DNA of 64,000 nt from the NCBI GenBank assembly GCA_965655315.1, contig CBFHGJ010000004.1, positions 4,382 through 68,381 of the forward strand. Reading direction: 5' to 3'. Positions 8,002-36,830 of the stretch are shown in pieces. The translations under genes and the position numbers were made by a program. The stretch is from Bacteroidia bacterium. Its GTDB lineage: Bacteria > Bacteroidota > Bacteroidia > NS11-12g > UBA9320. How positions within the stretch are numbered: position 1 is the first letter of the stretch; the number at the start of each line of letters is the position of its first letter. Below the pieces are notes generated by a model. The model saw only the letters and a program-made list of their open reading frames with translations. It ran no database searches and had not been told where the DNA came from.

Positions 8002-8025
8002 GTGTTAAAATCAGTAAACAAAAAA

Positions 8026-8055
8026 AGGGTGCAATCAAATAATTGATTGCACCCT
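8026..8055. terminator. bidirectional intrinsic terminator between convergent genes
   Basis: Perfect 13-bp stem AGGGTGCAATCAA / TTGATTGCACCCT with loop ATAA. A7 on one side gives a U-tract for the minus-strand giant gene; TTTAAT on the other side serves the plus-strand gene. Confidence 0.78.
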
Positions 8056-8076
8056 TTAATATTTAACAAGGCCGTG

Positions 8077-11000
8077 TTATGGTTGTCTTATTAACTCTAC
8101 CTGTCCTTCTATAGGACCCTGACCTTCATTTTCTTCTCCAAACTCAAACTTGTAGTTGATAATGTAGAAGTAGGTTCCTTCTGGGCAGTCCGATTTAGTA
8201 TTATCTACTTTACCATTCCAAGAAGTATTTATATCATCTGATTCAAATACTTTTTCGCCCCATCTGTTATATATCTTAATATTATATTCTTCAAGACCCT
8301 CTCCGTCTATAACAAACTCATTGTTTCTTATATCACCTTCAGGAGTAAATACATTATATACAACTAGTCTTCTTACATAAGAGTTATTAACTAATTGACA
8401 TACAGTATCCATACATCCTATTGAGCTTTGAGCTATTAAACATACTTCATAAGTACCAGTTCTATTATCCCAATTATAGCACGGATTTACTTCGTTGCTA
8501 CTTCCTGGAAGTGGGTCATCTTCAAATGACCATTCATATTTAGTAGAATCAGCATCTACCGATTCATTTATAAAGCAGAAGTTTGGTCGGTCGGAAGAAT
8601 CTATCGAGAACTTAGCTTCAACACCTGCAACTCTTACGAATACACTATCTCGTCCCCAACATCTCGGTAAGATATCATATTCAGGAGCTTGTGCTACCCA
8701 ATAGTTACCAGGACTACTAAAGCTTCTTGACCAAGTTCTATCCGTTGTTGTAGCTCGATTTAATGAATCTCCTTCGCTAGACAACCACACTAATCTGGTG
8801 TAACGCTCATCTAAGCTATCGATAGTAAAGTTAATTACTTCATTTGGACAGACAAGTGTGTCATCCGCTGAAATATGTACTTCTGGTAGCGGTTTGACGA
8901 TAGCAACCATTCTACGTTGCACCAATTGGGACTCACTACTATCTGGGAACACCCTTGTACAACTATTGCCATCTGGCATAACATCCTGCATAGCTAACCA
9001 TAGAATGAATGTGTCTGCTCTTTGGTAAACGTGACCATACTTCTCTGAACCAGCTGGTGGATCTGAGAAATTACCATCACCCCAGTTCATTAATAAACTT
9101 GGGTTGTTACCGTCACTCGTACTTAAGTTTTTCAAGAAAACTGAATCTCCTAAACAAATTTCAATAGTATCTGTCAAACCACCCAAATCAAATTCAAATT
9201 CTGGTCTAGGTCCAGGTATATAGATACGCTTGGTGATAGAGTCTTCACAACCCAGCTCTGACCACACCTTTAATGTTACATCAAAACTACCTCCAGAGGT
9301 ATAGTTATGAGATGGATTCTGCAGTAAACTCTTACGAGTACCATCCCCGAAATCCCATTCCCATCGTATTACTTTTTCACAACTAAGAATAGTTCCATCA
9401 GCACACGTATCTCTACACGGATCATCTACCCAGCTACTATCTGTAAAGTTTACAATAGACTCACAGCTAATTACAGAATCACCTAAAAAGTCAGGATGTA
9501 ACCTTGAAATGTACGCAGTGAGTACAGAGGTATCTCTACAACCAATACTATCCTTAGCTATAATAGTAATGTCGTACTTTCCAGGATTTTTATATCTGTG
9601 ATTTAGTACAATCGAACCTACAGAGCTATCTCCATCACCCCAAAAGGCTTTGTGGAACTCTATCAAATTCGCAACTCTATCAGGAGTTTGCCAGAAAGGA
9701 ATTTCCTTAATAGGATAAGTGAACGGATCTTCCTCTCCATACTGATAATACCTAAGTGAATCCTCTACAAGAAGAGAAGCACCCTCACACAGGTTCTCGT
9801 TTTCTAACCAATATTCATTATAAAAACCTACGTTCAATAGATTACCTGATCTAGCTTCACATCCATCTGTATTATTTAAGAACAGAGTAGGAATCATAGG
9901 TCCGTTGCCTGCACGGAATATAGTATCCTTAGCTCCTGGGAAACACGGATCTGGAGTAACTTCTTCCGGGAAAACATACTGTTTTCTCCATACACCTGCA
10001 ATGGTATCTAACTGTCCATTACCAGATGTATCTTGAAGGAGTGTATCGTAACCTTGTAAAGAAGAATCCCTAAAGTGTAAAATTTGAGAAACTTCATAAG
10101 AATTAACACAATCATCTCTATTGTAATTGTTAGTAGAATCAATAACATTTACTTGTACATTTTCCTGTCGAGTCTGAATACTAGTTATGGAATCTTGGGT
10201 CGGGTCTACCTGAGATTTAACTCTGTTACCTGCCATATCTGTGAAAAAGGTAGTATCTGGAACTGTGATAGATTCTGCAGTTACAGTAGTATCATACAAG
10301 AACATTGGAGAATAAACTCTACACCTCATTCTTCTATCACCTTCTACCCATACATCAGGGTCCACTTTCTCAGAGTAAGCCTTCTTGCCAAACCTAAAGA
10401 ACTGACTCAAACCAGTTGTATCAAGACAACCACTTGTTCCATCACCAAGGTAAAGTGGGATATCTTCAGGTGGCAATTCAGAATAATTTAACCCTAATAA
10501 TTGCTCAAATGCATCCTTTACAGCTCCATCAGCGTTTCTAGTGTCAGCTACGATTCTATAATCTTTTATAATCGTTGTTACTATCGTATCAATTATTTCT
10601 AAGCCTCCAAAATCTGTTATAGTTTGTCTAATAACATAGTTATACAACCAATCATCAGAAGGACTCCAGATTACATTTGCATCATTTCTGCCTGCTACAG
10701 GTCCATTGTATTTCTCATAATACTTGAATTGCTCAACATAAATATCTAGTGTAGGTCCTCTTCCAATACCTTGGTAACCCCAAGCCCATCTCAACACAGA
10801 TATACTGTCTTGAATTGGCTCATTTATTCGGAATACAGCTTCACCACCAGCACAAATCACTTTTCTAGGTGTAGTAGGCTCTAATATGGTAAATCCTGAA
10901 TTTAAATATAAAATTCTGAATAAATCATTATACCAAAATGTATCAAGACATTCCGGTAGCATTCCTCCTCCTTGTTGAGGTACCATTCTACCATTACCTA

Positions 11001-14000
11001 CTATCAGGCCTAACGTAAATGAACCGTTCGGATTTCTCAAAGTTGGATCATTACCTATCTCCCCTGGAGTATAGCCTTTCACAAACTCTCCACCTAAGTT
11101 CCCCCTAATATCGTAAGGTAAAACAAATGGGATAGGAAGTCCTGGAGGAGGAGGAGCAAGAAGTCCACCATTATATGGAATGAAGTTATTTGGATCCGCT
11201 AAAGAATCAAGATTAGCTGCAAACCAGCGTTGTGTACAACCAGGTTTAGTTTCCGTTATGTTAAAGGTTAATATATAATTTAAGTTACTCCCGTCAAACG
11301 GACAAGGCAATCCAGAAGCCCACTCTAATCCATTTGCATTTGGTGGAATAAGTGCTAGAGATTTTGTCCCTTCAGACTCGCACATTAGAGGATGAATAGT
11401 ATCCTGTTGCCAAAGTGTTACGTTAAAGCATTGAGCATTTTCTAAGAACCATTCTTCCCTATGCTTAGCCGAATCCACAATTATCTGAGAAATCTCAGTC
11501 TCAACCAAAATACCAAACTGTTCTCTAAGCACTGGAATTCTAGAAGGCGTTGCAAACGTAGTATCAGACTCATTTTCTTCGATCTTTATAAGAACCTTAA
11601 TAGAATCATTACTTGATATTTCAAACTGTTCGTTTGCGTCAAGCGTAACTGTTTGTGGTCCTGTGAAGCTTCGAGTTCTTCCTACATTAGCTCCACCGCC
11701 ACCAGGAGCAGCTAACTGAAGTGTATTTATCGTTACACCAGCTGGAATGAACACATCCATCTCGTGGAATGCAGCCGTCCAAGTAGTTTTAGCATTGCCC
11801 GCAGTAATATTATTCCTACCTAACCAATCCTCAGTATGATATGTAGTATCTGTAAGATTATTAACTGCTACAAATGTGTCTAGAGCAGGATCCCAGTATA
11901 ATTCGGTTCCAATGAAACAAGATGGTGGCCTTTTAACTATCCAATTCCCAAGTCGATTCTGAGGGTAAATTACTCCTGGTTTGATTGTATCCCCTCGATA
12001 AATCAAAGTAGAATCCAAAGGAACAGTAAGTACTGTATCTCCCTGAACTATCATAGGATTTGAAGGGAATATATTTACTTGATAACATCTAGATCTGTCA
12101 CCATTTTTGAATAGTCTTGTTTCTCTAATTGGTGTAGTATAATTTCTACCATCTTGGAATGTTTGATATATCTCATCCCAAGGGGTATACCAGTGAACCG
12201 GAGTACTATCAATTGTCCAATTACAATTGATTCCTACATTCTTATTTACCCAAGGCCTACTGTCTGTGGTACACTGCGGAGCATATTGGTCTCCCATTTC
12301 CCATACACGCCACACGTTGGGGTTGTAGTTTCTGATAATTGGAGTCAATGGATCTACCGCAGTTTGATCTCCAATACCTACACCGCCTTTACCCACTGGA
12401 GGAGTGTAGTTAAACACCCATCTTCTTCGTGGATTCACTCCAAATCTATAACTCTTCCCACCTTTAGCAGGATCATACACTAGTCTATGCCAGGTAGTAT
12501 CCCCCAAACGGATAGCCGCAATGGAATCTTTTGCAGTATCAAAATAAACCTTGTAAGCTTTCTTTTTTATAGTATCCGTGGGAGCATAAGTACTATCTAA
12601 AGTCTTAGTGTTCCCTCGATTCAATTCTTCATATTCTCGGTAATGCAAGGAATAGAAACCACTGGTATAGTCATACTGATAATCAAAGGTGCAGTCATAG
12701 TAATACACTGCTGAATCTTCATCAAACCTGTTCCAATCATTTTGATAATAACTAGAGTTGTTAGGGAAATGAATAGAATCTCTAATCAAACACTGATACG
12801 TTTCATCTTCTGCAACACGGTCAAATGCCACTTCTATAGTAGAACCAGGTCCTATAAGCTGAACAGTATCGTATATAGTAATATCACAAGGCCCAGCAAA
12901 TAATCTTAGACTAATCATCCACGGTCCTGGACCGTAAGCTTTATTAGGAGTTAAAGTCTTGTCATTAAAATTAGCAGGACCTGCTGGTGGATCACCAAAA
13001 TTCCATAAAAATCTATCCACGGGAGTACCGTCCAGATTCTCAACCGAAAACTCTATCGGATTATCAGGTGTACAAGCAGGGTCAGGATCTGCCACTATTC
13101 TAGGGTCAAGAATAATATTACCTACAGCAGATTTCCATGTGAATACGTCTACACAACCATATGCTTCTACAATAAGACTACCATCAAATAAGCCTTGTGT
13201 TCTATACATATGTGAAACTTTATTGTCATTGTCTGGACCAAACCACCATTCAGTATTTGTAGTTCGGTTACCTCCTACAGATTCTCCATCTCCCCAATCC
13301 CAATAAAAACTATCGATATCAGCTAACGGGACTGTACTTGTATTTTCAAAAATACCTAAGGTAGAATCACAACCAGGATTAGGTCTAGGTGTAATATTGT
13401 TGAACTCGGCTCCTATCTTAGGATGAACATAGATGATGTCTTTATACTCAACACGTGCAATACAACCACTTTCATCTTCCACTTCAACTACTAAATCAAA
13501 AGAACCACCCGACGGATCTAAAATAGTGTGACAAATAGTATTGTCTAACTTTTTCCGAACTTGTCCATCATTGAAAATGGTATCATATCTCTGACCATCA
13601 CTGAATAAGTAAGTCACACGAATGATATTTCCTTCCGGTGCAGAAGATGTATCCCTAAAACAAAATCTATTGTCTTTAAAACACTGTGTGTCTCTGTCAA
13701 TCACAAATGCGTCTACATCTGGAGAAGGTTTAATTACTACACTTAGGTCTGTATTAGTACACTGACCTGCGGGTCCATCTCCTTTAAACGTAATAGTAAA
13801 TGTTCCTGAAGTCTGGTATGCATAGGTAGGATTCTGTTGAACAGAATTTCCGACACCATCACCAAAATCCCACTGCGGAGCTGTGGTATAACCAGGTGAA
13901 TTTGCTCTGAAACTAATAATCTCACCTACGCAAAAAGTATCCATAACCCCTTGTTGACCGTCTTTCATGGTCAACTGCGGTGAACACTGTGAATAAGCAA

Positions 14001-14154
14001 AACTACTCACAAAAATGAGCAGCGTAGATAGAACATACTTGTACAGTATATTCTGGATTGATGGTTTGTTCATATCTATATTCATTTGATAGTTGTCTTT
14101 TGTATTTAGCCTATAAAAGCTTGTAAATTTACTTGTGTTATCTCTATTATTCAA
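8077..14154 (-). CDS. giant (2025 aa) PKD-domain-rich surface protein with C-terminal T9SS type-B sorting domain (gliding motility-associated C-terminal domain)
   Basis: C-terminus …YNVFTPEGDIRNNEFVIDG…IYNRWGEKVFESDDINTSWNGK…GTYFYIINYKF… matches the type-B CTD. Repeated PKD-like WDFGDG…/WNFGD… motifs. The signal peptide lies at residues 38-55 of the track ORF, so the true start is probably ATG at about 14085 or 14073. Confidence 0.85.
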   Translation of the reverse strand: MNNRDNTSKFTSFYRLNTKDNYQMNIDMNKPSIQNILYKYVLSTLLIFVSSFAYSQCSPQLTMKDGQQGVMDTFCVGEIISFRANSPGYTTAPQWDFGDGVGNSVQQNPTYAYQTSGTFTITFKGDGPAGQCTNTDLSVVIKPSPDVDAFVIDRDTQCFKDNRFCFRDTSSAPEGNIIRVTYLFSDGQRYDTIFNDGQVRKKLDNTICHTILDPSGGSFDLVVEVEDESGCIARVEYKDIIYVHPKIGAEFNNITPRPNPGCDSTLGIFENTSTVPLADIDSFYWDWGDGESVGGNRTTNTEWWFGPDNDNKVSHMYRTQGLFDGSLIVEAYGCVDVFTWKSAVGNIILDPRIVADPDPACTPDNPIEFSVENLDGTPVDRFLWNFGDPPAGPANFNDKTLTPNKAYGPGPWMISLRLFAGPCDITIYDTVQLIGPGSTIEVAFDRVAEDETYQCLIRDSIHFPNNSSYYQNDWNRFDEDSAVYYYDCTFDYQYDYTSGFYSLHYREYEELNRGNTKTLDSTYAPTDTIKKKAYKVYFDTAKDSIAAIRLGDTTWHRLVYDPAKGGKSYRFGVNPRRRWVFNYTPPVGKGGVGIGDQTAVDPLTPIIRNYNPNVWRVWEMGDQYAPQCTTDSRPWVNKNVGINCNWTIDSTPVHWYTPWDEIYQTFQDGRNYTTPIRETRLFKNGDRSRCYQVNIFPSNPMIVQGDTVLTVPLDSTLIYRGDTIKPGVIYPQNRLGNWIVKRPPSCFIGTELYWDPALDTFVAVNNLTDTTYHTEDWLGRNNITAGNAKTTWTAAFHEMDVFIPAGVTINTLQLAAPGGGGANVGRTRSFTGPQTVTLDANEQFEISSNDSIKVLIKIEENESDTTFATPSRIPVLREQFGILVETEISQIIVDSAKHREEWFLENAQCFNVTLWQQDTIHPLMCESEGTKSLALIPPNANGLEWASGLPCPFDGSNLNYILTFNITETKPGCTQRWFAANLDSLADPNNFIPYNGGLLAPPPPGLPIPFVLPYDIRGNLGGEFVKGYTPGEIGNDPTLRNPNGSFTLGLIVGNGRMVPQQGGGMLPECLDTFWYNDLFRILYLNSGFTILEPTTPRKVICAGGEAVFRINEPIQDSISVLRWAWGYQGIGRGPTLDIYVEQFKYYEKYNGPVAGRNDANVIWSPSDDWLYNYVIRQTITDFGGLEIIDTIVTTIIKDYRIVADTRNADGAVKDAFEQLLGLNYSELPPEDIPLYLGDGTSGCLDTTGLSQFFRFGKKAYSEKVDPDVWVEGDRRMRCRVYSPMFLYDTTVTAESITVPDTTFFTDMAGNRVKSQVDPTQDSITSIQTRQENVQVNVIDSTNNYNRDDCVNSYEVSQILHFRDSSLQGYDTLLQDTSGNGQLDTIAGVWRKQYVFPEEVTPDPCFPGAKDTIFRAGNGPMIPTLFLNNTDGCEARSGNLLNVGFYNEYWLENENLCEGASLLVEDSLRYYQYGEEDPFTYPIKEIPFWQTPDRVANLIEFHKAFWGDGDSSVGSIVLNHRYKNPGKYDITIIAKDSIGCRDTSVLTAYISRLHPDFLGDSVISCESIVNFTDSSWVDDPCRDTCADGTILSCEKVIRWEWDFGDGTRKSLLQNPSHNYTSGGSFDVTLKVWSELGCEDSITKRIYIPGPRPEFEFDLGGLTDTIEICLGDSVFLKNLSTSDGNNPSLLMNWGDGNFSDPPAGSEKYGHVYQRADTFILWLAMQDVMPDGNSCTRVFPDSSESQLVQRRMVAIVKPLPEVHISADDTLVCPNEVINFTIDSLDERYTRLVWLSSEGDSLNRATTTDRTWSRSFSSPGNYWVAQAPEYDILPRCWGRDSVFVRVAGVEAKFSIDSSDRPNFCFINESVDADSTKYEWSFEDDPLPGSSNEVNPCYNWDNRTGTYEVCLIAQSSIGCMDTVCQLVNNSYVRRLVVYNVFTPEGDIRNNEFVIDGEGLEEYNIKIYNRWGEKVFESDDINTSWNGKVDNTKSDCPEGTYFYIINYKFEFGEENEGQGPIEGQVELIRQP

Positions 14155-14156
14155 AT

Positions 14157-15413
14157 CTAAGGTCGTATTAAAGTTAGTCTTACATTTTCGGTCTTACTAT
14201 TTTCTCCTTTGAGCTGATATTTTATACGTGCAATATACTCTCCTGGAAGACACTCTTCTCCCACGTTAAATTCTCTTCCATTCCACTTATTATCAGGATT
14301 TTGCGAAGTGAAAATCATTCTACTGTTTCTGTCAAAAATCTGAACAGTGAAGTTATCGTAGTCTCTAATTTCAATAGGATATTCATCATTATGACCATCC
14401 CCATTTGGAGTGAATGTATTGTATGTTTTTAAGTATCCAGTTGATTTTTTGGTCAGTGATACACTTACATTTTCAGCACAAGACAATCCCGTTGGTATTC
14501 CAACTAAATTGTATTGACCTACCATGTCTAACGTTACAGTCAAACTGCTCGAATTATTTTTGATTGACGCTCCGTTCAGAATCCAGTCAACCAATACGCC
14601 ACTAGGCTGTGTTTGGAAGCTATAATTATCCTTACCCTTTTGTGTTTTCGTTATTGTGAATGAATTATCCAATACTTGAATAGATTCCTCTGCACTAGCA
14701 AGTCCTGCTTGAAGGCTAACGAGCACTTCACCCGCCTCGTTGCACAGATAAGTTAACTCACTTGAATTACTAACTACTCTCTCTCCGTTAATGTACCAAT
14801 CCCCTGCAAAACTGCTGCTTAAAGTTACCGTTTCACCTTTACAAGGAGTGTTTTTCGATACCCTAATAGTTAATTCTTTCCTTTCTAAAATGTTAGACGC
14901 TTCATCTAATGTTTTAGATTTTTCGTAACCTATAGACTTATCAAGTACATCTGACGGGCTATCCTCAATTTTATCCTTGATTCCAGTTGTCTGGCCATTG
15001 TTTTCTAGAGTTTTTGGACGCTCAACAGAGCTATTTGTAGGAGTTGCACCTTTAGAGTCAGCGTTTTCAGAATTTTCATTAACAAGAATCTCTGTTTCTT
15101 CATAACCTTCGGTGTTTTCAGCTATTAGAGAATCAACTACCAAAACTTCAGGAGAATTTGGCACCTGATCTTGGGTCTTGTTTTCGTTGTAAACAACAAT
15201 ACCTATAGCTGCTATACCACCTGCAAAAAGGCCTACTTTCAGCAGATTCGTAGCAGATTTGAAAAAACTAACTGTTTGAGCTAATCCGCTAGCTCCTTGA
15301 GTTGTAGATGCAGATACATCAGTCCACACGTCTGAAGGAGGCGAAGATGTATGACCATCTAGTTGCTTTTTTAGCAGCTGCTCAAACTCATTTATATCCT
15401 CAAACTTCTTCAT
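14157..15413 (-). CDS. single-pass membrane protein, anti-sigma-factor-like N-terminus, Ig-like extracytoplasmic region and C-terminal T9SS type-B sorting domain
   Basis: 418 aa with about 55 aa of hydrophilic N-terminus, one TM (VGLFAGGIAAIGIVVY), and an acidic S/T/N-rich linker. C-terminus …YNTFTPNGDGHNDEYPIEIRDYD…IFDRNSRMIFTS…NKWNGREFN… matches the type-B CTD. ATG directly follows the TAA of the upstream sigma gene (TAAATG). Confidence 0.6.
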   Translation of the reverse strand: MKKFEDINEFEQLLKKQLDGHTSSPPSDVWTDVSASTTQGASGLAQTVSFFKSATNLLKVGLFAGGIAAIGIVVYNENKTQDQVPNSPEVLVVDSLIAENTEGYEETEILVNENSENADSKGATPTNSSVERPKTLENNGQTTGIKDKIEDSPSDVLDKSIGYEKSKTLDEASNILERKELTIRVSKNTPCKGETVTLSSSFAGDWYINGERVVSNSSELTYLCNEAGEVLVSLQAGLASAEESIQVLDNSFTITKTQKGKDNYSFQTQPSGVLVDWILNGASIKNNSSSLTVTLDMVGQYNLVGIPTGLSCAENVSVSLTKKSTGYLKTYNTFTPNGDGHNDEYPIEIRDYDNFTVQIFDRNSRMIFTSQNPDNKWNGREFNVGEECLPGEYIARIKYQLKGENSKTENVRLTLIRP

Positions 15414-15959
15414 TTATTTAAACCAATCTTTTAGCCAGACTTGAAGCTGTTTACGAGCTTTAAACAGTTGTGATTTAGATGTATTCTCATTCACACCTAA
15501 AGCTTCACTTATCTCTTTGTGAGAGTAACCATCGACGACAAACATGTTAAACACGGTTCTATATCCCGCTGGCAGCTTTTGCACTAGCATCATCATTTTT
15601 TCGGCGTCCATACTCCCTACATTTATGTTCGTTGTGAGTTTAACATCCGTTGAATTCAATTCGCTTACATCAAGATGCTTTTTTCGTTTTCGGAACTGCT
15701 CGATACTGGTATTTACGAATATTCGTTTTAGCCATCCTTCGAAGCTTCCAGAAAACGAGTAGCTACCTATCTTATTGAACACTTTTATAAAGCCTTCCTG
15801 CAGAGCATCTTTGGCTTCATCTTCATTGTTCATATATCTCAAGCATATGCTGTACATCGTGGCAGAGTGTCTATCGTATATCTTCTTAAACGCTTTGTTA
15901 TCTCCTTTTCCACAAGCCTTAATTAATGATGTTTCATCATATGTTTCGCTATGGCTCAT
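15414..15959 (-). CDS. RNA polymerase sigma-70 factor, ECF subfamily
   Basis: 181 aa. Region 2 (…YDRHSATMYSICLRYMNNEDEAKDALQEGFIKVF…) and region 4 HTH (…SHKEISEALGVNENTSKSQLFKARKQL…). Confidence 0.85.
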   Translation of the reverse strand: MSHSETYDETSLIKACGKGDNKAFKKIYDRHSATMYSICLRYMNNEDEAKDALQEGFIKVFNKIGSYSFSGSFEGWLKRIFVNTSIEQFRKRKKHLDVSELNSTDVKLTTNINVGSMDAEKMMMLVQKLPAGYRTVFNMFVVDGYSHKEISEALGVNENTSKSQLFKARKQLQVWLKDWFK

Positions 15960-16009
15960 GGTGGAGTTGGTATAAAGATGGACTCAAGACTGAGATGGTT
16001 GCCTATAAA

Positions 16010-16477
16010 TTATATTTTTTTTACGTGGTATTTCTCTGCCAGATATTCTTTTAAATTTTCAGCATAATAACCAACGGCTTCTAGTGGTTCCACTATCTCT
16101 ACTTCATTCAGGCCATGGGTCACCCTTTTATACTGTATACTAACCACTCTTTGCTCAGAATTTGCAATAAATCGTGCTCCAAATAAATGAAAATTCAAGT
16201 GAGCTAGTTCTTCCATGAACATTGCCAAATACTCATCTGCAGGGTAATGGCAAACTGGCGATACAACCTGAAATATTGCAGCTACATTATCTCTATCAAA
16301 ATACTGCCATTGACTAGCAACGTCCGGCTGCCATATATCAATATATAGCTCAGTTGAATCCCCTCTTTTGATAATATACTCGCCTTCGTTTTCACATCTG
16401 ATCTGCTCTGGCTTCAATTGCAAGTGCTTATTAACCGTCTCCTGGAAAACCTTGATTGCTTCCTTGATTTGCATCAC
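16010..16477 (-). CDS. hypothetical cytoplasmic protein (possibly YbjN-like)
   Basis: 155 aa with no signal peptide. The family assignment is a weak guess from size and composition. Confidence 0.35.
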   Translation of the reverse strand: MMQIKEAIKVFQETVNKHLQLKPEQIRCENEGEYIIKRGDSTELYIDIWQPDVASQWQYFDRDNVAAIFQVVSPVCHYPADEYLAMFMEELAHLNFHLFGARFIANSEQRVVSIQYKRVTHGLNEVEIVEPLEAVGYYAENLKEYLAEKYHVKKI

Positions 16478-16515: not shown

Positions 16516-19296
16516 TCACTTGATAATCCATGAGGTTGAATCTGACTGATCCTTCTGAGATACACTAATCTGATAAGTGCCTTTTTTAGGGTATGGATTA
16601 TTTTTATTATTAAATTTTACAGGGATTTTTAATTGATTTATTCCTCTGCGTGGTACGAAAGAATGTGTGAACAACGTTTCGTCCTCCTTTTTAATTTTCA
16701 AAACTACCTCAGCTACATCAGCAACTACAACATCTAGCATCAATTGAGGCTGTAGTATATTCCAATTGTAAGACCTCTCACCCCAAATATTGTTGAATTC
16801 TACTTCCTCAGGACTAAATACCGTAAGTCCAGAATCCTGATACTCAATAAGTAGGTTTAGACATTGGAGTTCTACTTTGTACAAGCTCCTCCCATGAGTT
16901 GCAATTAGAAGATCATTATTCACTTCATTTATAGTCAAATCATGAACTGGGACTACAGGTAAATCTGAAAGTGTTTGAAACGTTCCTCCACCATCAGAAC
17001 TAAACATTAAGCCTGCATCGGAGCCAACGTAAATCCTTGAAGTATTATGGACATCTTCACGTATAACGTTTAATGATTCCTCAGGCAAATCCTTACCAAG
17101 TTGTTTCCATGTTTCACCGAAGTTTTCGGAACAATAAATAAGGGCTGAGGTGTTATCCCAATTATGGCCATTTAAAATCAGATACACCTTAGATTTAACA
17201 TGTCTGGACGCGACTAATCTCTTTACCCAATACCCCTTAGGGAGTCCGTCAGATCTATCGAGCCAGTTATTGCCTCCATCTTTGGTACAAAAGACCTTCC
17301 CGTCATCACTGCCGGTATATATAAGTCCAAATTTCAATGGGCTCTCACTTATATCTGTCAATGTGCCATAGCTTACATCGCCCTTTGCAGACCCATTAGT
17401 TAAATCATCACTTATCGCCTCAAACGTCTCGCCCCTGTCCATACTCCTATGCAGTTTGTTGCTCCCCATATAAAGTATCTGTTGATTATGTGAGCTTAGT
17501 AAAATTGGTGTTTGCCAATTCCACCTTAATGGATCTTCTTTTAATTCATGCTTTGGGTGAATATATTTTCTCTTCCCATTTTTATCAATTCTGTAGTAAT
17601 GCCCAAATTGATATCCGGTGTAGATAGAACCTTGATCATCTATTTCTATTCGCATGCCATCTCCGCCTAAAAGTCTGCGATAGGGATATCTACCCTCTTG
17701 GTGCCAATAGGAAGATGCTTTGTAGTTTGGGGAGCCTTCCCAAACACCATTATCCTGAAGACCACCATAAACATAGTAGTTTTCCTTTTGGCTAACAGCT
17801 ACGGTATAAAACTGCCCTACTGCAGGAGAATTACATTTGATCCAATTCTCCCCTCCATCATAACTTATGTTAATTCCCCCATCATTTCCATTGATTAGGT
17901 GATTGGAATCGTTTGGGTTTATCCAAACATAATGGTGATCTACGTGGACATTATCTCCTCCTACAAATGAAAAATTCTTTCCGTGATCCGATGATTTTAA
18001 CAAAGGCACTCCAGCTATATAGACTTGCGATGGGTATGTTGGATTTACTTGAACCGTACCGAAGTAATAACCGTAAGTATAACACACCCGTTCTAAGACT
18101 TCGTTATGCGTTCTTTTCCAAGTCTGTCCAAAATCATTGCTTCTATAAAGCTCAGCTCCCTTCACATTCGTATCAAATAAATCGGCATTACTATCAGTCA
18201 AATAATCATATAATAGTTTAGGCTCAATTTCTCTTTTTCTTACTTGCTTTTTGAGATTTTTAGCATCGTGCTTTTTGGGAAATCCATTCTTCTTTAAAAA
18301 TGTATTTAGTGTGGAATCGCTTAAATTCATAAAGCTATCTACCGTCATTTCTAGAAATGCTTTTTTCTCTATCCCTTCCTGCCTTTTTTCAGGTTTCTCA
18401 AATTCTTCTTGGTTATCCACTAAGGCGTATACTACTCCACCAGTGGCTGTTGTAAGCCCTATACGACCTACGTTTTCTGAAGACAAGAAAGTAGTGCTAA
18501 CGTTCCAAGATTCTCCTCCATCTTGGCTGATATAAATACCACTTTCTGGACCACCTTCCCAAAAATTCCATGCTCTACGAGACTTCTCCCATGAAGATGC
18601 TATCAATTGTTGAGAATTCTCTGGATTAAACTCCATATCAATTACACCAGTATTTTCAGAAATATATAAAGTTTGCTTCCAGGTCTTTCCGCCATCTCCA
18701 CTTTTATATACTCCTCTTGCCTTACTTGTTGAAAACAGGTTGCCAATAGCAGCCACGAATATTGTATTCTTATCAGCAGGGTCTATGAGTATCCTTGCTA
18801 TATGTTGCGTACCTTCTAACCCTAAATGTTCCCAACTATACGTGCCATTGGAAAATGAAGATTTAAAAACGCCCAAACCTGCGTAGCTAGATCGACTACT
18901 ATTTGCTTCTCCAGTTCCTACATATATTTCTTGACTTGACCAATTTACGGCAAGAGCTCCGCAATTATTGGTCAATCCATTGTTGTCAAAAATCGGGGCG
19001 AATGACTGTCCGTTGTTTTTTGTTTCCCAAACACCTCCCGTGGCATAGGCCACAAAAAAGTGTTTTGAATTGTTAGGATTTACAGCTACGTCTACTACCC
19101 TACCACTCATTATAGTCGGTCCTATATTTTTACTTTTGATTGATGTGTAGATTGATTTAGACCGCTCCATCGATCTTTTCTCAGCTACCTCTAACCTAAC
19201 TTTATCTGAACTGGGTTTTACTGAATTTATGGGGTACTGAGCAGAAACATTGAATAAATGGAACAGAACGACTAGAATTAAAGTGAGCCTTTGCAT
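16516..19296 (-). CDS. secreted BNR/Asp-box repeat protein with sortilin/VPS10-like beta-propeller (glycosyl-hydrolase-like)
   Basis: 926 aa with a signal peptide. Multiple S-x-D-x-G-x-T-W-type Asp-box motifs (SGDGGKTWK, SQDGGESW, SNDFGQTW, SYDGGENW, TKDGGNNW, SENFGETW, SSDGGGTF). Confidence 0.7.
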   Translation of the reverse strand: MQRLTLILVVLFHLFNVSAQYPINSVKPSSDKVRLEVAEKRSMERSKSIYTSIKSKNIGPTIMSGRVVDVAVNPNNSKHFFVAYATGGVWETKNNGQSFAPIFDNNGLTNNCGALAVNWSSQEIYVGTGEANSSRSSYAGLGVFKSSFSNGTYSWEHLGLEGTQHIARILIDPADKNTIFVAAIGNLFSTSKARGVYKSGDGGKTWKQTLYISENTGVIDMEFNPENSQQLIASSWEKSRRAWNFWEGGPESGIYISQDGGESWNVSTTFLSSENVGRIGLTTATGGVVYALVDNQEEFEKPEKRQEGIEKKAFLEMTVDSFMNLSDSTLNTFLKKNGFPKKHDAKNLKKQVRKREIEPKLLYDYLTDSNADLFDTNVKGAELYRSNDFGQTWKRTHNEVLERVCYTYGYYFGTVQVNPTYPSQVYIAGVPLLKSSDHGKNFSFVGGDNVHVDHHYVWINPNDSNHLINGNDGGINISYDGGENWIKCNSPAVGQFYTVAVSQKENYYVYGGLQDNGVWEGSPNYKASSYWHQEGRYPYRRLLGGDGMRIEIDDQGSIYTGYQFGHYYRIDKNGKRKYIHPKHELKEDPLRWNWQTPILLSSHNQQILYMGSNKLHRSMDRGETFEAISDDLTNGSAKGDVSYGTLTDISESPLKFGLIYTGSDDGKVFCTKDGGNNWLDRSDGLPKGYWVKRLVASRHVKSKVYLILNGHNWDNTSALIYCSENFGETWKQLGKDLPEESLNVIREDVHNTSRIYVGSDAGLMFSSDGGGTFQTLSDLPVVPVHDLTINEVNNDLLIATHGRSLYKVELQCLNLLIEYQDSGLTVFSPEEVEFNNIWGERSYNWNILQPQLMLDVVVADVAEVVLKIKKEDETLFTHSFVPRRGINQLKIPVKFNNKNNPYPKKGTYQISVSQKDQSDSTSWIIK

Positions 19297-21469: not shown

Positions 21470-23998
21470 TTAAAACAGCGGAGTAACTGTCCCTTTTCTA
21501 GTCCTTGCTTGCCCATCACATCCTCTATAGTATGCGTAATAGATATAAGCAGCCTGAGTAGCTCGCTTGCCTTTATAAAAACCATCCCAGTTGGGAGTAT
21601 CTGAAGTTCTGGAGTCAAAGACTTTTTCTCCCCATCTATTAAAAATAAGTATATAGTATTCAGTCTGTTTAACAGACTCACTGAATGGGAACATATCATT
21701 CAGTTGATCATCGTTTGGAGTAAAGCTATTCGGGATATAAATATCATTGGGCAACGCTCCTTCGTCAACTATGACCTCGAGTGTATCAATATCGAAACAT
21801 CCTGAATCGTCCGTAATTTTCACTGAATAAGATCCACCATCTCTAATAGAAATTTGTTGTTCATTACTTCCTACATTCCACTCGTAAGCAAATCCTGCTG
21901 GAGCTGACAATAGCGTAGGACTGTTCTTACAAATAGTGGTATCATTTCCTAGTGAAAGTCTTGGAGACTGAGACAATGTCAATGTTACAGAATCCACAGC
22001 TACACAACCATTTGTATCTCTCACCTCTACTTTATAAAATCCAGGTTGATTTACTTGAATAGTTTTAGATACGTCATTTGTGTTCCAGTTATAAAATGCT
22101 CTATCAGTTCCTGCATCTAGTACAACATTTAATGAATCACAGTAATTGCGGTCTTCCCCTAAATCTAAACTAACTACTGGATTTAGAATATTAAATGTAT
22201 CTCGTTTTCTACAATGCTTTTGCTGTGATTCCACCCAATATTGCCCAAATATGCTGATTTGGCTAGTAAGTCCTTGATCACCATTTGACCAAGAATAAGT
22301 TGCGTCAGGGAATTGTTCTACGGTAGCTGTATGAATGAACTCATTGCAGTACAATGCATCTGGCACCTCGGGTTGATCTGCTACCCTTACTGTCATATCT
22401 TTAGACAAAGCACAATTGCCATTGGCTGCGGTCACAGAATATGTTCCCGGCTCAGTAATTGTCACTGTAGTAAATGTATCTTGTGGACTCGTCGTCCACG
22501 CAAACTTGATCTCAGGACGTTTATTTGGCATTTGTAACTCAGCCTCGAGTAAAACCTCATCACAGAAGAGCGTATCTTCAATGAGTGAAAAGTCAGGTAT
22601 TGCATCTAGTCCAATATTGATTTCATCTGTATACGAGCACTCACCATAGGATACGGTAACAGAATATGTTCCCGTATCTCTTACGGTAATGGAATATCGA
22701 GTAGAACCTGTATTCCATAATATATCTGGAGCATCCGGATCTCTAGTATATAGATCTAGCACAAAATCATTACAGTATACTTTGTCTTCACCAAGATCAA
22801 ACGGAGGAGAAGACCTAATACGTACTTGATATTCATACTCATCTTCGCATTCATCAGATTTTACAGTAAGAGTAATAGTATAGTCCCCATTCCCTGGATA
22901 GGCATACTCCACGGGATCATTGATATCATAAGTTATTAACTTATCATCTTCTGTATCTGGAACCCCAAAGTCCCAATGAAACTCTGCGGATATACTAGGC
23001 TCTACAAAACTTAGATTCGTGAGCTTTACAGTATCTTCACATCCAAAAGAATAAATTCCATTTTCTACATCTCCTCCGTTTAGCCTATAATTTGCTAGAA
23101 TATTAAAATCACATTGAATTACGCTTATTTGGTAATCTCTTCTAGTAACTCCTAAAAGTAGACCATCTCTCCATTCTTCTACCAGCAATCCAATGACGTA
23201 GACTCCTCTTTCAGTTGGTGTCATAGTCAATCTTCCGGTTCGTGCATCAAGATTTAGTGCTGGTTCACCTGGAATAGGATTCTTAGAATCATACCCGTTG
23301 GCCCAAAATACACTTTGAAAATCAGGTCTATCATACCATTGTTGTGAACTTGGTCTGATCCGTTCATCAGGTGCTCGTGCTCCACCTCTGTACGGCGTAG
23401 ACATTTTGTAAGCTAGAGAGTCTCCATCAAAATCAAACGCCTCTTGCGTAATATCTAAAGGAGCATCCACGCAGATATAAATCGGAGGTATATCAGTGAA
23501 TAATGGACTGCTGTTTTCTATTCGACTAGGGGGAATGGTTGTCCAAGCAGTAAATCCAGTAGCTTCAGGAGTCACGATATTATCAATTATCCTATTTCTG
23601 CAACACCGTTGCCACGCTAAAATTACACCATTTTCACCTGGATCTATTTGTACTTCTGCACTGTACAGATATGCCGTTACACAAACATTTCTTGGACCAT
23701 TTATGCATGCATAATCCTCACTCTTGGTTACCTGAGTTTGATTGAATGTACTGACAGTAAAGTCTCTTTGAAACTGTTTTGTCTTAGCATCCCACTGGGA
23801 AATGTACAACGTCTGATCTGAGGCGATTGCTTGAGGATTCCCATTTTCACAATCAAAAAATATCTGAGCAGTAACTCTATAGGTATTCGTTTCTCGGTCT
23901 AGTAACCTGTACATCAATTCACCTCCAACTATATGTGTAGCAAAGCCTAAGGTGGCTTGAACTAGTAAAATTGATATGAATATTAACCGATAAATCAC
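21470..23998 (-). CDS. T9SS type-B C-terminal-domain cargo protein (gliding motility-associated C-terminal domain protein)
   Basis: 842 aa with a signal peptide. C-terminus …IYIPNSFTPNDDQLNDMFPF…ILIFNRWGEKVFDS…NWDGFYKGK… matches the type-B CTD. Confidence 0.85.
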   Translation of the reverse strand: MIYRLIFISILLVQATLGFATHIVGGELMYRLLDRETNTYRVTAQIFFDCENGNPQAIASDQTLYISQWDAKTKQFQRDFTVSTFNQTQVTKSEDYACINGPRNVCVTAYLYSAEVQIDPGENGVILAWQRCCRNRIIDNIVTPEATGFTAWTTIPPSRIENSSPLFTDIPPIYICVDAPLDITQEAFDFDGDSLAYKMSTPYRGGARAPDERIRPSSQQWYDRPDFQSVFWANGYDSKNPIPGEPALNLDARTGRLTMTPTERGVYVIGLLVEEWRDGLLLGVTRRDYQISVIQCDFNILANYRLNGGDVENGIYSFGCEDTVKLTNLSFVEPSISAEFHWDFGVPDTEDDKLITYDINDPVEYAYPGNGDYTITLTVKSDECEDEYEYQVRIRSSPPFDLGEDKVYCNDFVLDLYTRDPDAPDILWNTGSTRYSITVRDTGTYSVTVSYGECSYTDEINIGLDAIPDFSLIEDTLFCDEVLLEAELQMPNKRPEIKFAWTTSPQDTFTTVTITEPGTYSVTAANGNCALSKDMTVRVADQPEVPDALYCNEFIHTATVEQFPDATYSWSNGDQGLTSQISIFGQYWVESQQKHCRKRDTFNILNPVVSLDLGEDRNYCDSLNVVLDAGTDRAFYNWNTNDVSKTIQVNQPGFYKVEVRDTNGCVAVDSVTLTLSQSPRLSLGNDTTICKNSPTLLSAPAGFAYEWNVGSNEQQISIRDGGSYSVKITDDSGCFDIDTLEVIVDEGALPNDIYIPNSFTPNDDQLNDMFPFSESVKQTEYYILIFNRWGEKVFDSRTSDTPNWDGFYKGKRATQAAYIYYAYYRGCDGQARTRKGTVTPLF

Positions 23999-24206: not shown

Positions 24207-25070
24207 CTAAAAATTGAAAATTCTGGCAATGTTAAACCCAAATCTTACATCACCGTCTAACCATTTGGCATTTGTATCAGTGATAAAGGCTTTTTCAAAC
24301 GGACCGCTGCTATTAGTGAAAAATAGCTGAAATACATGTCCTCCAGTTTCTATATCAAAACCAAGTGATAATACGTTAGTTCTATTGGTCTCAAGTTGAT
24401 CGGGAAGCACATAAAAGTACTCAAAGTTTAGCGTAGTTCTAGTTGTAAGCTTCTGACGAATCCCAACCCCGAGTGAAAATATATCATTTGCCAAAGAATC
24501 AGCTGACACTAAATTTTCATGGACTAAAGTCGGAGTAAGTTGCACACTTAATCCTTCGGTAAACTTCCGTGCAAGTAGCAGCTGATGTACATAGTGTAAT
24601 CTGCTAGAAAAAAGATTTTCTCTTTCTGGCTGGGTGAATCTTAAGGTGCTCACTCCAGCATGACTCATCCAAACCGCTGATACGGGCATTTCTTTAGCCC
24701 CACTAGACTGCCTTAGGAATTTGTACTTGACAAAACCATCATAAGTTTTATCGACCGTGCTTCGCCCAAGGCCAATGTTTAGATTGTCGGTAATACCATA
24801 ATCGCCTCCTATTCTCATAGTCGCTTGATCTAGACCAAACAACTCATACGCACCGCCACTTAAGAAACCAAATCTATGTGATATCTTGAAGTCAAACTCT
24901 CGCTTAGCTACAGTCTCTATACTATGTCCATTGACTACTCTATTTGTTTTGAAAGTCGCTGTAGTATAATTCGTAATAGGCTCATCATCATCCAGTAAAT
25001 CTAGACCTTGGCCATAACTCGCATGTATAAAGAAACAGATTAGGAAACCGAACAGTATTCTACTCATCAT
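24207..25070 (-). CDS. outer-membrane beta-barrel-like protein, unknown function
   Basis: 287 aa with a signal peptide and alternating amphipathic beta-strand pattern. The C-terminus ends in F (…RIFNF), typical of OM barrels. Confidence 0.5.
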   Translation of the reverse strand: MMSRILFGFLICFFIHASYGQGLDLLDDDEPITNYTTATFKTNRVVNGHSIETVAKREFDFKISHRFGFLSGGAYELFGLDQATMRIGGDYGITDNLNIGLGRSTVDKTYDGFVKYKFLRQSSGAKEMPVSAVWMSHAGVSTLRFTQPERENLFSSRLHYVHQLLLARKFTEGLSVQLTPTLVHENLVSADSLANDIFSLGVGIRQKLTTRTTLNFEYFYVLPDQLETNRTNVLSLGFDIETGGHVFQLFFTNSSGPFEKAFITDTNAKWLDGDVRFGFNIARIFNF

Positions 25071-35832: not shown

Positions 35833-36830
35833 AGCTGTTTGACTAGTAAGGAAATACTATAATTTGATGGCCCTGTCCTAGCAAATGAAGTGGCCCGAAT
35901 GGCATAGTATTTATCTTCCTTATTGAGAAGTAAGGTTAGTTCATCTGCCAATTCTAATGCATTATTCTCTCTATCCCAATGGACGAAGGTATTGAAGAGC
36001 TGATCTGTTTTATAAAACTCAAGTTTAGAGGCGTAGAAATAATCAATATTCTCAAACCCTGCTGTAGTATCTAAATAGAGAAAATTTGTTCTATAATTCA
36101 CAAGAAGTCCATTATAGATGCCAAAATTAGGGTTGATTGTATATTGCTCTGGAAAAATCTGATGAGTCTGAATAGAATCTTGGAGGTAAGTAAAGCATAA
36201 ATCCCAAGCACCTATTTGAGGTTCTACATTCTGAACTTTCTTATGCTTTTTAAATGAAAAATATGAATGAGCATAGTCAGAATCTTTATTAATCCAAACA
36301 GAATAAGTTGTATCATTATTAAGGGGTCCGTATCTCAAATGATAGGCATTTACCGTAGCATCAAGAAGCTGCAATTTATATAAGTAAGATGTGTCTTGAT
36401 CATTCCATAGTATTAAAAAAACATCCTTGAATGATTTAGGGTTGTCAAAGCTAAAGTCACCCCATTCACCTAATGCTGGAGAGAGCCCTTCTGGGGTAGG
36501 AACATCCATTTGCCAAACCACTTCAGGACCAAAACTACTCGCATCTACCGCGTCAAAGTCTGTTTGAGTAGTGTTATGTATCACAACATTATCCAACGTA
36601 TTTAAGTAAATACCCCAGCCTTGATTTGTGTTTTGAAATTTCAAATGCCAAGCCGGTTCTGATTCATTGTATTCGGGTAGTATTGAGCCCAAATCGATAT
36701 AGGCTGACTGATTTTCATCGATGCTAAGATTAACAGTAGTTTCTTGCGGAGCTATAGGAGGCAGTACTTCGTCTGGACGAAAACATGAAACAAGAAATAA
36801 ACAAAGCGTTATGTAACCTAGAGACCTCAT
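35829..36830 (-). CDS. lipoprotein encoded directly downstream of a TonB-dependent receptor (possibly HmuY-like accessory protein)
   Basis: 333 aa with lipobox LVSCF. Start overlaps the receptor gene stop. The HmuY-like call rests only on context and a W-D-L-x-F segment. Confidence 0.4.
   Translation of the reverse strand: MRSLGYITLCLFLVSCFRPDEVLPPIAPQETTVNLSIDENQSAYIDLGSILPEYNESEPAWHLKFQNTNQGWGIYLNTLDNVVIHNTTQTDFDAVDASSFGPEVVWQMDVPTPEGLSPALGEWGDFSFDNPKSFKDVFLILWNDQDTSYLYKLQLLDATVNAYHLRYGPLNNDTTYSVWINKDSDYAHSYFSFKKHKKVQNVEPQIGAWDLCFTYLQDSIQTHQIFPEQYTINPNFGIYNGLLVNYRTNFLYLDTTAGFENIDYFYASKLEFYKTDQLFNTFVHWDRENNALELADELTLLLNKEDKYYAIRATSFARTGPSNYSISLLVKQL

Follow-up and report, generated by a model that had tools for sequence, protein, structure and literature searches.

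A predicted sigma factor operon of an uncultured Bacteroidia bacterium in which the probable anti-sigma factor ends in a type IX secretion-type C-terminal domain

Results

Three minus-strand genes encode a sigma factor, a membrane protein and a giant cargo protein

We analyzed a stretch of 64,000 nucleotides (the window; contig CBFHGJ010000004.1 of assembly GCA_965655315.1, positions 4,382 to 68,381) from a Bacteroidia bacterium of the lineage UBA9320, and examined in it three open reading frames (ORFs) that are packed head-to-tail on the minus strand (Table 1). In the order of the unit, they encode an extracytoplasmic function (ECF) sigma factor, a 418-aa membrane protein, and a giant type IX secretion system (T9SS) cargo protein. 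An initial annotation of this DNA had described these genes and the junction TAAATG, at which the stop codon of the sigma gene abuts the start of the middle gene; we confirmed the genes, their coordinates and this junction in the sequence. The same tight coupling is seen in all related loci beyond the window, with a middle gene whose start either overlaps the sigma stop or adjoins it.

The first gene was correctly recognized as that of an ECF sigma factor. Its 181-aa product consists of sigma-70 regions 2 and 4 only, with Pfam matches to Sigma70_r2 at residues 27-94 (3.2e-14) and Sigma70_r4_2 at residues 121-172 (5.2e-17), and scores 85.4 bits against TIGR02937 (cutoff 42.9). Against the FecI-like model TIGR02985 the protein scores 89.2 bits, under the cutoff of 126.4, and it also falls under the cutoffs of PG0214-type models. 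Pfam detected no FecR or DUF4974 domain in the operon proteins, and there is no SusC/TonB-dependent receptor among the annotated genes around the operon or in the syntenic loci; the nearest receptor-like genes that we scanned lie at 36827-38746 and 61001-63811. Thus, as the initial annotation had held, the sigma factor and its neighbor are not a FecI/FecR-like pair.

The third gene encodes the giant PKD-rich type B cargo that had been annotated, with Pfam matches to PKD_4 (6.5e-42), PKD and CHU_C (1.3e-18) and a further match to the type B model TIGR04131. The PKD domains occupy residues ~1590-1900 and CHU_C residues 1932-2004, and the signal peptide (…VLSTLLIFVSSFAYS, with Q as the next residue) stands behind an N-terminal extension of ~25 aa. 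The gliding or adhesion role initially proposed for this protein is suggested only by its PKD and immunoglobulin (Ig) content.

The middle protein combines a conserved N-terminal module, a membrane helix, a tether and a type B CTD

A search of 5.8 billion proteins yielded nine full-length homologs with identities of 33-92%, and we used their alignment to define the zones of the 418-aa protein and for structure prediction with AlphaFold2 (AF2). The polar N-terminal module (N-module) is the best-conserved part of the protein in this alignment, and AF2 predicted short helices at residues 7-19 and 27-37, followed by a long helix at 43-63. The single transmembrane (TM) helix has a mean hydropathy of 2.05 over 19 residues and is nearly invariant among the homologs, and the equivalent segment is at position 55-61 in every ortholog. 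Beyond it lies a tether that is hypervariable and unalignable among orthologs, and AF2 gave residues 64-177 values of 25-33 for the predicted local distance difference test (pLDDT); since tether lengths estimated from composition were erratic, we used the AF2 disorder call instead. Residues 181-418 were predicted with pLDDT >90 as an all-beta structure of two Ig-like domains and the beta-sandwich of a C-terminal domain (CTD). Pfam found weak PKD_3 and BiPBP_C matches in the Ig-like region. Foldseek searches with the folded part returned generic tandem Ig/FnIII strings, with Aureispira GhpA as the top match, and against the PDB only generic tandem Ig-like matches, which are uninformative on the CTD and the N-module.

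The CTD is of T9SS type B; it matches residues 329-407 (E 3.8e-16) and scores 59.4 bits against PF13585 (cutoff 27) and 40.8 bits against TIGR04131 (cutoff 35). In three loci (L033, L038 and L039), minimal relatives of 290-298 aa consist of N-module, TM helix, tether and CTD only, without Ig-like domains. Because these relatives lack the Ig-like domains but keep the CTD, they suggest that the CTD is the essential distal element. Pfam detected neither a known anti-sigma domain (zf-HC2, RskA or FecR) nor a PF13568 or PF13505 barrel domain in the 418-aa protein. Judged from its sequence relationships, which we describe below, it is very probably the membrane anti-sigma factor of the adjoining sigma. 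The initial annotation had called the protein anti-sigma-like, and in this it was very probably right, but it had missed the protein's own T9SS type B CTD.

Table 1. Features of the operon (positions in the window)
Feature	Position	Strand	Details
ECF-type promoter GGCAAC(C)-N17-CATCT	15976-16003	-	-35 at 16003-15998, -10 at 15980-15976
ECF sigma gene	15414-15959	-	181 aa
Middle (anti-sigma-like) gene	14157-15413	-	418 aa
N-terminal cytoplasmic module	15246-15413	-	residues 1-56; core F..LLK..L....PP.DVW..V
Single transmembrane helix	15189-15245	-	residues 57-75, LLKVGLFAGGIAAIGIVVY; hydropathy and alignment
Predicted disordered tether, low-complexity	14874-15188	-	~residues 76-180; AF2 and alignment
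Two Ig-like (PKD-like) beta domains	14445-14873	-	~residues 181-323; AF2, Foldseek and weak Pfam matches
T9SS type B CTD (CHU_C/TIGR04131) with stop codon	14157-14444	-	residues 324-418; without RWG
Gene for the giant type B cargo (T9SS)	8077-14154	-	2025 aa from TTG 14154; 2002 aa from ATG 14085
Conserved N-terminal extension of the giant protein, …KFT(N)F(L)…	14074-14154	-	~25 residues ahead of the signal peptide
Alternative giant-gene starts	ATG 14085, ATG 14073	-	
Intrinsic terminator hairpin	8024-8057	.	15-bp stem, 4-nt loop, T-runs on both sides

The sigma/CTD-protein pair is conserved across Bacteroidota and recurrently linked to large type B cargo genes

The neighborhoods of five homologs all have the order sigma gene, middle gene, and a PKD/CHU_C gene of 1970-2024 aa, with the giant gene split or truncated in L004 and L005. 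Since these five loci also share their upstream synteny (YceI, DUF5777, a CHU_C protein of ~800 aa, an amidohydrolase, a Sortilin/BNR protein and a 155-aa ORF), we count them as one lineage. The synteny breaks exactly after the giant gene, which is followed by MetH in some loci and by a fumarylacetoacetate (FAA) hydrolase in others. P0010, a distant homolog with 28% identity, is encoded in a wholly different context with the same gene order, and there a second giant CHU_C gene is found upstream; the triad order recurs in unrelated genomic contexts (L010).

The initial annotation had named a survey of neighborhoods of orthologous sigma genes as a check on the linkage. Using a sigma alignment, we searched a set that holds a single genome for each GTDB species, and analyzed the resulting 80 loci with a custom CHU_C hidden Markov model and hydropathy. 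Twenty-one representatives have a sigma factor at least 62% identical to that of the window, and 19 of these have sequence downstream of the sigma gene. In all 19, the next gene encodes a TM+CHU_C protein of 405-425 aa, and in 18 a giant gene follows, the contig of the remaining locus (L024) ending inside the anti-sigma gene. The 18 giant genes are complete with CHU_C in 14 loci, split in two in one and cut by the contig end in three. Thus, the linkage of the triad is conserved, and the arrangement is far beyond chance. Carriers of the triad include the complete genome CP121331.1 and the 2.4-Mb contig JAGYJG010000001.1. Within the orthologous clade, sigma identity is 76-82% and the giant proteins are 47-74% identical (64-74% in L002 and L011; ~51% in L006 and L008), while the 418-aa protein is only 35-39% identical, with an N-module far better conserved than the rest.

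At lower sigma identity (43-51%), about twenty further loci keep the sigma/TM+CHU_C pair, from lineages that include Salibacter (the cultured S. halophilus KCTC 52047), Crocinitomicaceae, Lentimicrobiaceae and Bacteroidales. With these, the triad or the pair is present in >40 species-level genomes from several Bacteroidota orders. In most of the 36 loci with CTD-type partners a large CHU_C gene lies directly downstream, and in L058, L062 and L063 one lies directly upstream. The giant proteins of different lineages are not orthologous, those of the window and L010 aligning over the PKD+CTD end only, with 25% identity. Because of this, we conclude that the conserved core is the sigma/CTD-protein pair, whereas linkage to large type B cargo occurs frequently and repeatedly without being obligatory. 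The dedicated control of a single gene, which had been proposed for the window, is not general, as some lineages keep the pair without a CHU_C cargo gene in the flanks of up to 10 kb on each side. Of these, two loci were inspected (L042 and L046), and in both the pair is a stand-alone unit between convergent genes. The initial annotation had also taken the arrangement to be uncommon; it recurs in dozens of genomes and probably belongs, as a variant, with a published family (Dma/Reo-ECF21; PMC10927553).

We noted some further features of individual loci. A gene for an M16 (insulinase-like) peptidase, identified by Pfam, lies between the anti-sigma gene and the CHU_C cargo gene in L036 (11676-12980; Bacteroidales) and L049 (11616-12938; Lentimicrobiaceae), and a same-sized gene is present in L035 and L037, which are L036-like; we consider this peptidase a candidate for a protease that would process the tether or the cargo. 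Split giant genes are found in L004 (11260-16690; 387 + 1419 aa, no CTD detected) and L032 (11804-17992; 304 + 1734 aa), and in L060 (2753-4030) the TM part and the CTD of the anti-sigma protein lie in separate ORFs; these splits could be pseudogenization or assembly/frameshift errors. Two metagenome-assembled genomes deposited as 'Chitinophaga pinensis' (L018 and L019) encode a sigma factor 77% identical to that of the window in the same syntenic triad, and their label is probably wrong.

An ECF-type promoter motif precedes the sigma gene and, in other loci, separately transcribed cargo genes

When we aligned the 130 nt upstream of the sigma gene from 18 orthologous loci, the motif GGCAAC(C)-N17-C(A/G)TCT was kept in all 18, while the rest of the ~50-nt intergenic region varied. 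In the window, the motif ends 16 nt before the sigma ATG, and by its sequence the bipartite GGCAAC-N17-CATCT is the classic ECF -35/-10 pattern. It is the sole strict match in the 64-kb window, where 0.14 matches are expected and at least one match arose in 13 of 100 shuffles. Relaxed matches elsewhere in the window lie within genes; no second strict copy was found in the window, including the regions before the giant gene and before a gene for an 842-aa CHU_C protein.

A scan found no terminator-like sites between the three genes. Past the giant gene stands the bidirectional terminator that had been reported as a perfect 13-bp hairpin at 8026-8055; it is real, and stronger than claimed, with 15 pairs at 8024-8057 and a T-run, and it is common to the operon and a convergent FAA-hydrolase gene. 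One conserved ECF-type promoter, overlapping or abutting genes, the lack of an internal terminator and the terminal hairpin together support a single transcription unit, such that the three genes look like one sigma-dependent transcript.

At the start of the giant gene, the DNA (TTG-N20-TAAATTTAC) resembles a sigma-A promoter of Bacteroidota, for which the consensus is TTG at -33 and TAnnTTTG at -7 (cited in PMC9723704). Starting at a conserved TTG 2-9 nt past the anti-sigma stop, the giant frame runs open for 26 codons in 17 of 18 orthologs, compared to 0 of 18 and 1 of 18 for the other two frames. The single exception (L025) is an anchoring artifact, and its frame is open when read from its stop codon. 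Moreover, indels in this region are in-frame, and most orthologs have an ATG at codon 4-5, the window and L002 having TTG only as the start of the extension. Given the frame openness, the ~25-aa N-terminal extension is, by the pattern of its sequence, translated, and the anti-sigma and giant genes nearly abut. The initial annotation had placed a gap of at most about 70 nt before the giant signal peptide; the genes do nearly abut, but the true gap is smaller (2-15 nt before the giant gene), since the translated extension fills it. The conservation of TTG-N20-TAAATTTAC is largely explained by coding constraint; a coding sequence may nevertheless act as a promoter, and we keep an independent housekeeping promoter at this place as a caveat. 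The extension calls to mind the extended signal peptide regions that very large autotransporter and two-partner secretion (TPS) adhesins have.

Motifs of the same type as that of the window also occur upstream of sigma genes in other loci, both with CTD-type partners (L033, L034, L038 and L040-L043, and as an AGTCT variant in L046, L048 and L054) and with partners that end in an outer-membrane beta-barrel (L047, L064, L067, L078, L087 and L089); the promoter type shared between the two sets is GCAAC-N16/17-CATCT. In two loci, a cargo gene that lies upstream of the sigma gene offers an independent test of the wiring. In L058, GCAACC-N15/16-CGTTT occurs exactly twice in 20.5 kb, compared to 0.01 expected, with one copy 30 nt before the upstream 1292-aa CHU_C cargo gene and the other before the sigma gene. 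Similarly, in L063, CAAY-N17-TGTCT stands before a 1932-aa CHU_C gene and before the sigma gene (three matches, one being a reverse-strand overlap, compared to 0.28 expected). No convincing copy was found upstream of the second, upstream cargo gene of L010. Since the separately transcribed cargo genes of L058 and L063 have their own sigma-type motif, the wiring of sigma to cargo gains independent support. Thus, the claim that the giant gene is under control of the sigma factor is strengthened by the features of a single unit and by these motif copies, with co-transcription and regulation themselves being computational predictions.

Anti-sigma CTDs form an RWG-less subclass of CHU_C

From 36 anti-sigma and 62 cargo CTDs of the loci, we aligned the final 100 residues to the CHU_C model and compared the two sets. 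Both sets have FTPNGDGxND, W..G, G.Y and a terminal L.R. In contrast, the motif (N/D)RWG was found in 56 of 62 cargo CTDs, compared to 1 of 36 anti-sigma CTDs, and the cargo CTDs have R in 98%, W in 90% and G in 98% at the RWG positions. A Gly in the last strand, present in 97% of cargo CTDs, is likewise not conserved in the anti-sigma CTDs. The same difference was apparent in an independent set, with RWG in 0 of 37 N-module+CTD representatives, compared to 7 of 10 ordinary CHU_C proteins with a signal peptide. Thus, the anti-sigma CTDs (window 14160-14444; L002-L063; P0021-P0073) are a distinct RWG-less subclass of CHU_C.

In Flavobacterium johnsoniae, five conserved motifs of the type B CTD (A-E) are each needed for secretion of SprB, and type B CTDs pair with specific PorP/SprF shuttles, although orphan type B substrates with an unlinked shuttle exist (PMC12618676). 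The text of that paper does not give the sequences of motifs A-E, such that RWG is not assignable to one of them. We also considered that the anti-sigma CTD might mimic the CTD of its own cargo, and rejected this idea, since the two share 23-44% identity within a locus, and mean identities to cargo CTDs from other loci are 24-36%.

The system is a probable variant of the Dma/Reo-ECF21 family

The architecture of the middle protein resembles that of Dma1 (BT_4721; WP_008766767.1), which is encoded after the ECF21 sigma factor Das1 (BT_4720) and combines a single inner-membrane helix and a long disordered region with an eight-stranded barrel found in outer-membrane vesicles (PMC10927553). The first 40 residues of Dma1 pull down Das1, and Dma1 is proteolytically processed; Reo/EcfO of Bacteroides fragilis and Phocaeicola vulgatus are orthologs, and the N-terminal region was shown to bind the sigma in both Dma1 and Reo (PMC10927553). 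The Dma family is confined to Bacteroidota, and its known regulons comprise NigD lipoproteins, vesiculation and stress (PMC10927553).

Proteins of the Dma architecture also appeared in our survey. Where the sigma is ~39-49% identical to that of the window, the product of the next gene is similar in size and has the same type of N-terminus, a TM segment at ~43-54 and an aromatic C-terminal residue, and these proteins match the outer-membrane beta-barrel OMP_b-brl_2 in Pfam. When we compared the N-modules of 36 CTD-type and 22 barrel-type partners by hhalign, we obtained a probability of 97.9% (E 6e-13), with residues 5-40 of the window protein aligned; this homology was measured against the Dma-architecture proteins of the survey, not against the Dma1 or Reo sequences themselves. 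A profile made from CTD-type N-modules only gave 56 matches among 1.84 billion representative proteins, and when the 42 longer matches were scanned, 34 had CHU_C and 3 had OMP_b-brl_2. A word-indexed search with the combined N-module alignment returned 6 short matches, and a search with the barrel-type partners returned 209 PF13568 proteins.

Considering the architecture, the homology to Dma-architecture proteins, and the literature that places ECF21 sigmas beside Dma proteins, we think that the sigma of the window is probably ECF21-like (Das/EcfO-like). Sigmas with CTD-type and barrel-type partners interleave on a neighbor-joining tree with long, unresolved deep branches, which we used for the interleaving of partner types only and not for counting domain-swap events. 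The system has in common with Dma (PMC10927553) the order of sigma and partner gene, the N-module, one inner-membrane helix, a long disordered tether and the type of promoter motif. Unlike Dma, the 418-aa protein has Ig-like domains and a T9SS type B CTD where the C-terminal eight-stranded OMP_b-brl_2 barrel would stand; moreover, the linked gene encodes a giant T9SS cargo, and delivery to the outer membrane would use the T9SS rather than insertion of the type mediated by the beta-barrel assembly machinery (BAM). Because the defining C-terminal outer-membrane barrel is absent, the sequences place the system as a variant of the Dma/Reo-ECF21 family rather than as a member. Neither the 2024 Dma paper nor the follow-up preprint on Dma2 mentions the T9SS, and in a full-text search, which left most subscription journals uncovered, we found no paper that combines an anti-sigma factor with a type B CTD/CHU_C, or Dma with type IX secretion.

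The barrel-type loci have neighbors of their own. In Rikenellaceae and related Bacteroidales (L064-L091), the barrel-type pair is followed by genes for proteins of 312 aa and ~942 aa, which in L067, the only locus scanned, are an SLT lytic transglycosylase (11940-12878) and a UvrA-like ABC ATPase (12888-15722).

Neighboring genes in the window

Directly upstream of the ECF promoter lies a 155-aa ORF (16010-16477, minus strand) without a Pfam or NCBIfam match. All five syntenic orthologous loci for which a gene list was made have a gene for 154-155 aa without a Pfam match at the same place, and the 3' end of the ORF aligns in 18 of 18 orthologs; the gene is absent from the distant triad L010. 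Just upstream of it, a gene at 16516-19296 (minus strand) encodes a 926-aa Sortilin/Vps10-BNR (Asp-box) repeat protein that is syntenic in the orthologous clade and has weak NCBIfam similarity to the F510_1955-family glycosylhydrolase. A second type B cargo gene (842 aa, PKD + CHU_C; 21470-23998, minus strand) lies 5.5 kb upstream of the operon, and is preceded by a gene at 24207-25070 (minus strand) that encodes a DUF5777 protein by synteny with L002 and L011. The pairing of DUF5777 with an 842-aa-type cargo is kept in most orthologous loci.

Discussion

We favor, as a moderately probable reading, that the locus is an autoregulated operon of sigma, anti-sigma and cargo in which the anti-sigma factor is wired to the T9SS or the outer membrane. 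The parts of this reading differ in strength. That we are dealing with a pair of sigma and anti-sigma factor plus a co-transcribed cargo is likely, while a functional coupling of the anti-sigma factor to the T9SS or outer membrane through its CTD is close to evenly balanced, tilting slightly against. In the proposed mechanism, the N-terminal ~40-56 residues of the 418-aa protein would keep the sigma factor at the inner membrane, and the CTD would bring the distal end of the tether to the T9SS or an outer-membrane partner of the PorP/SprF type. The state of this connection, be it secretion competence, translocon load, or a pull on or loss of the outer-membrane anchor, would decide whether the tether is cut, and upon cutting, the membrane stub would be degraded and the sigma released. 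Free sigma would then transcribe from GGCAAC-N17-CATCT, yielding more sigma, fresh anti-sigma that resets the system, and the giant type B cargo. We infer the binding of sigma by residues ~5-40 from homology to residues 1-40 of Dma1, and proteolytic release by analogy with Dma1 processing; autoregulation and co-transcription are likewise predictions. That the T9SS or the outer membrane would be the thing sensed is the most speculative part of the scheme.

In one form of this scheme, the T9SS itself would be the input, and the anti-sigma factor a tethered pseudo-substrate that acts as a FlgM-like checkpoint or mechanosensor for type IX secretion. The CTD would be grabbed, and perhaps pulled, by the T9SS or gliding machinery, which is driven by the proton-motive force, or would be passed to a PorP/SprF-type anchor, and successful engagement or tension on the ~100-residue tether would trigger cleavage. 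Consequently, the 2000-residue type B cargo would be made only when the secretion machine can take it. We regard this form as possible but doubtful, and we are equally hesitant about the narrower proposal of a FlgM-like mechanism in which secretion releases the sigma.

Several points weigh against the reading that we favor. T9SS substrates normally need a cleaved signal peptide, and none that is cleavable was found in the 418-aa protein, whose hydrophobic segment begins only at residue 57 and shows no A-x-A-type site by eye; in contrast, its giant neighbor has a typical signal peptide (…FVSSFAYS, then Q). For a protein that is anchored in the inner membrane, passing through the translocon is topologically problematic. 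Furthermore, the RWG-less CTDs may not be secretion-competent at all, because RWG and the last-strand Gly are lost while SprB needs every conserved CTD motif. No PorP/SprF-like gene adjoins the operon among the annotated neighbors in the window and in the syntenic loci. Five loci from three lineages (L042, L043, L046, L048 and L054) have no CHU_C cargo gene in the flanks examined, up to 10 kb on each side, and, given the likeness of TTG-N20-TAAATTTAC to a housekeeping promoter, the cargo may be expressed independently of the sigma. Finally, the source organism is uncultured.

The main competing explanation is that the 418-aa protein is a conventional single-pass anti-sigma factor, in which the CTD is a degenerate periplasmic sensor or binding module of CHU_C fold that the T9SS never handles, and from which signal-dependent regulated proteolysis frees the sigma in the manner of standard ECF systems. 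The ligand might be a periplasmic ligand, unsecreted cargo, or a PorP-like protein reached from the periplasmic side. The loss of RWG and of the last-strand Gly, set beside the need of SprB secretion for all conserved type B motifs, speaks for this explanation, as do the missing cleavable signal peptide, an inner-membrane anchor that is awkward for translocation, and the lack of an adjoining shuttle gene. On the other hand, the CTD scores well over the cutoffs of both CHU_C and TIGR04131 and keeps FTPNGDGxND, W..G, G.Y and L.R, and linkage of the partner to type B cargo genes recurs. Moreover, the sister architecture has an outer-membrane beta-barrel at the same position (PMC10927553), and a disordered tether of at least 100 residues is kept even in the minimal versions; both observations speak for a distal domain destined for the outer membrane. 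On balance, we consider a purely periplasmic module unlikely.

Two other explanations fare worse. The ECF pair could control other genes, with the adjacency of the giant gene being inherited synteny and the giant gene being expressed mainly from a housekeeping-type promoter of its own at its 5' end. Indeed, TTG-N20-TAAATTTAC is a conserved match to the Bacteroidota -33/-7 consensus exactly at the junction, the close orthologs share wide upstream synteny and so are not independent observations, and some lineages have the pair without adjoining cargo. However, conservation of the junction is explained by coding, given the contrast between frames, the in-frame indels and the ATG at codon 4-5; in addition, downstream synteny breaks exactly after the giant gene (MetH versus FAA hydrolase), non-homologous giant CHU_C genes adjoin the pair in unrelated contexts (L010, L034 and L039), and separately transcribed cargo genes have the motif of the sigma's promoter. 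We therefore think it improbable that the cargo is a bystander. Still less probable is it that the 418-aa protein is no anti-sigma factor but a small type B surface protein with a long or uncleaved signal anchor, serving as an accessory or adaptor of the giant protein while the sigma is regulated otherwise. Such a role would fit its CHU_C and Ig-like domains, which are like those of the giant neighbor, and the lack of a known anti-sigma Pfam domain. It would leave unexplained that the first ~56 residues, which precede the hydrophobic segment and are unlike a signal peptide, are the most conserved, that the N-module is homologous to those of the barrel-type partners, the region that binds sigma in Dma1 and Reo, and that the gene start always overlaps or abuts the sigma stop in a pair that persists as a stand-alone unit without cargo.

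A coupled anti-sigma factor of the kind that we favor would have partial parallels in known systems. In the FlgM/sigma-28 system, the secretion machine that exports the sigma-controlled late cargo also has the anti-sigma factor as a substrate, such that expression reports secretion competence, and FlgM is a small soluble protein that is exported whole through the flagellar type III secretion system. Unlike FlgM, the anti-sigma factor of the window is membrane-anchored and would need proteolysis, its export by the T9SS is hypothetical, and there is no sequence relationship. In the RsgI/SigI systems of Clostridium thermocellum, a Gram-positive bacterium without an outer membrane, the outer end of the anti-sigma factor carries the kind of domain that is found on the large secreted proteins that the sigma controls, and these sensor domains are carbohydrate-binding modules that bind substrate. 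By contrast, the domain of the window protein would be a secretion signal, and the sigma and anti-sigma families are unrelated. As with FecI/FecR/FecA and SusC-linked pairs, an ECF sigma would stand under a single-pass inner-membrane anti-sigma factor informed from the outer membrane, but unlike FecI/FecR, the outer-membrane-directed element and the anti-sigma factor would be one polypeptide. A route from a CTD protein to an ECF sigma that controls T9SS-related genes is also known from the PorA-PorXY-SigP pathway of Porphyromonas gingivalis, in which a T9SS-CTD protein feeds surface or T9SS information into SigP (PMC7712824, PMC12152298). PorA is a normal secreted CTD protein that signals via the two-component system PorY/PorX, which stabilizes SigP (PMC7712824, PMC12152298); unlike the anti-sigma factor of the window, it does not act as an anti-sigma factor and is without an inner-membrane anchor or a sigma-binding module, and the pathway controls T9SS components, not a cargo gene.

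What distinguishes the present system is that the same sigma-binding module, helix and tether are joined to a different outer-membrane-directed ending, namely a type IX secretion signal. To our knowledge, very little is known of the control of type B cargo and adhesin expression. A functional CTD would make this the first case known to us of an anti-sigma factor as a T9SS substrate or pseudo-substrate, and would provide a direct transcriptional read-out of secretion competence. It also poses the topological question of how the T9SS would handle an inner-membrane-anchored substrate, and the RWG-less CTD subclass offers a natural handle to separate the features of a CTD that are needed to recognize from those needed to translocate. 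Experiments are feasible, since the cultured Salibacter halophilus KCTC 52047 carries the sigma/CTD-anti-sigma pair on NZ_WACR01000002.1. If it is true that the T9SS is the input, the system would form, together with barrel-type Dma, a broader Bacteroidota class of envelope-spanning anti-sigma factors that take different routes to the outer membrane.

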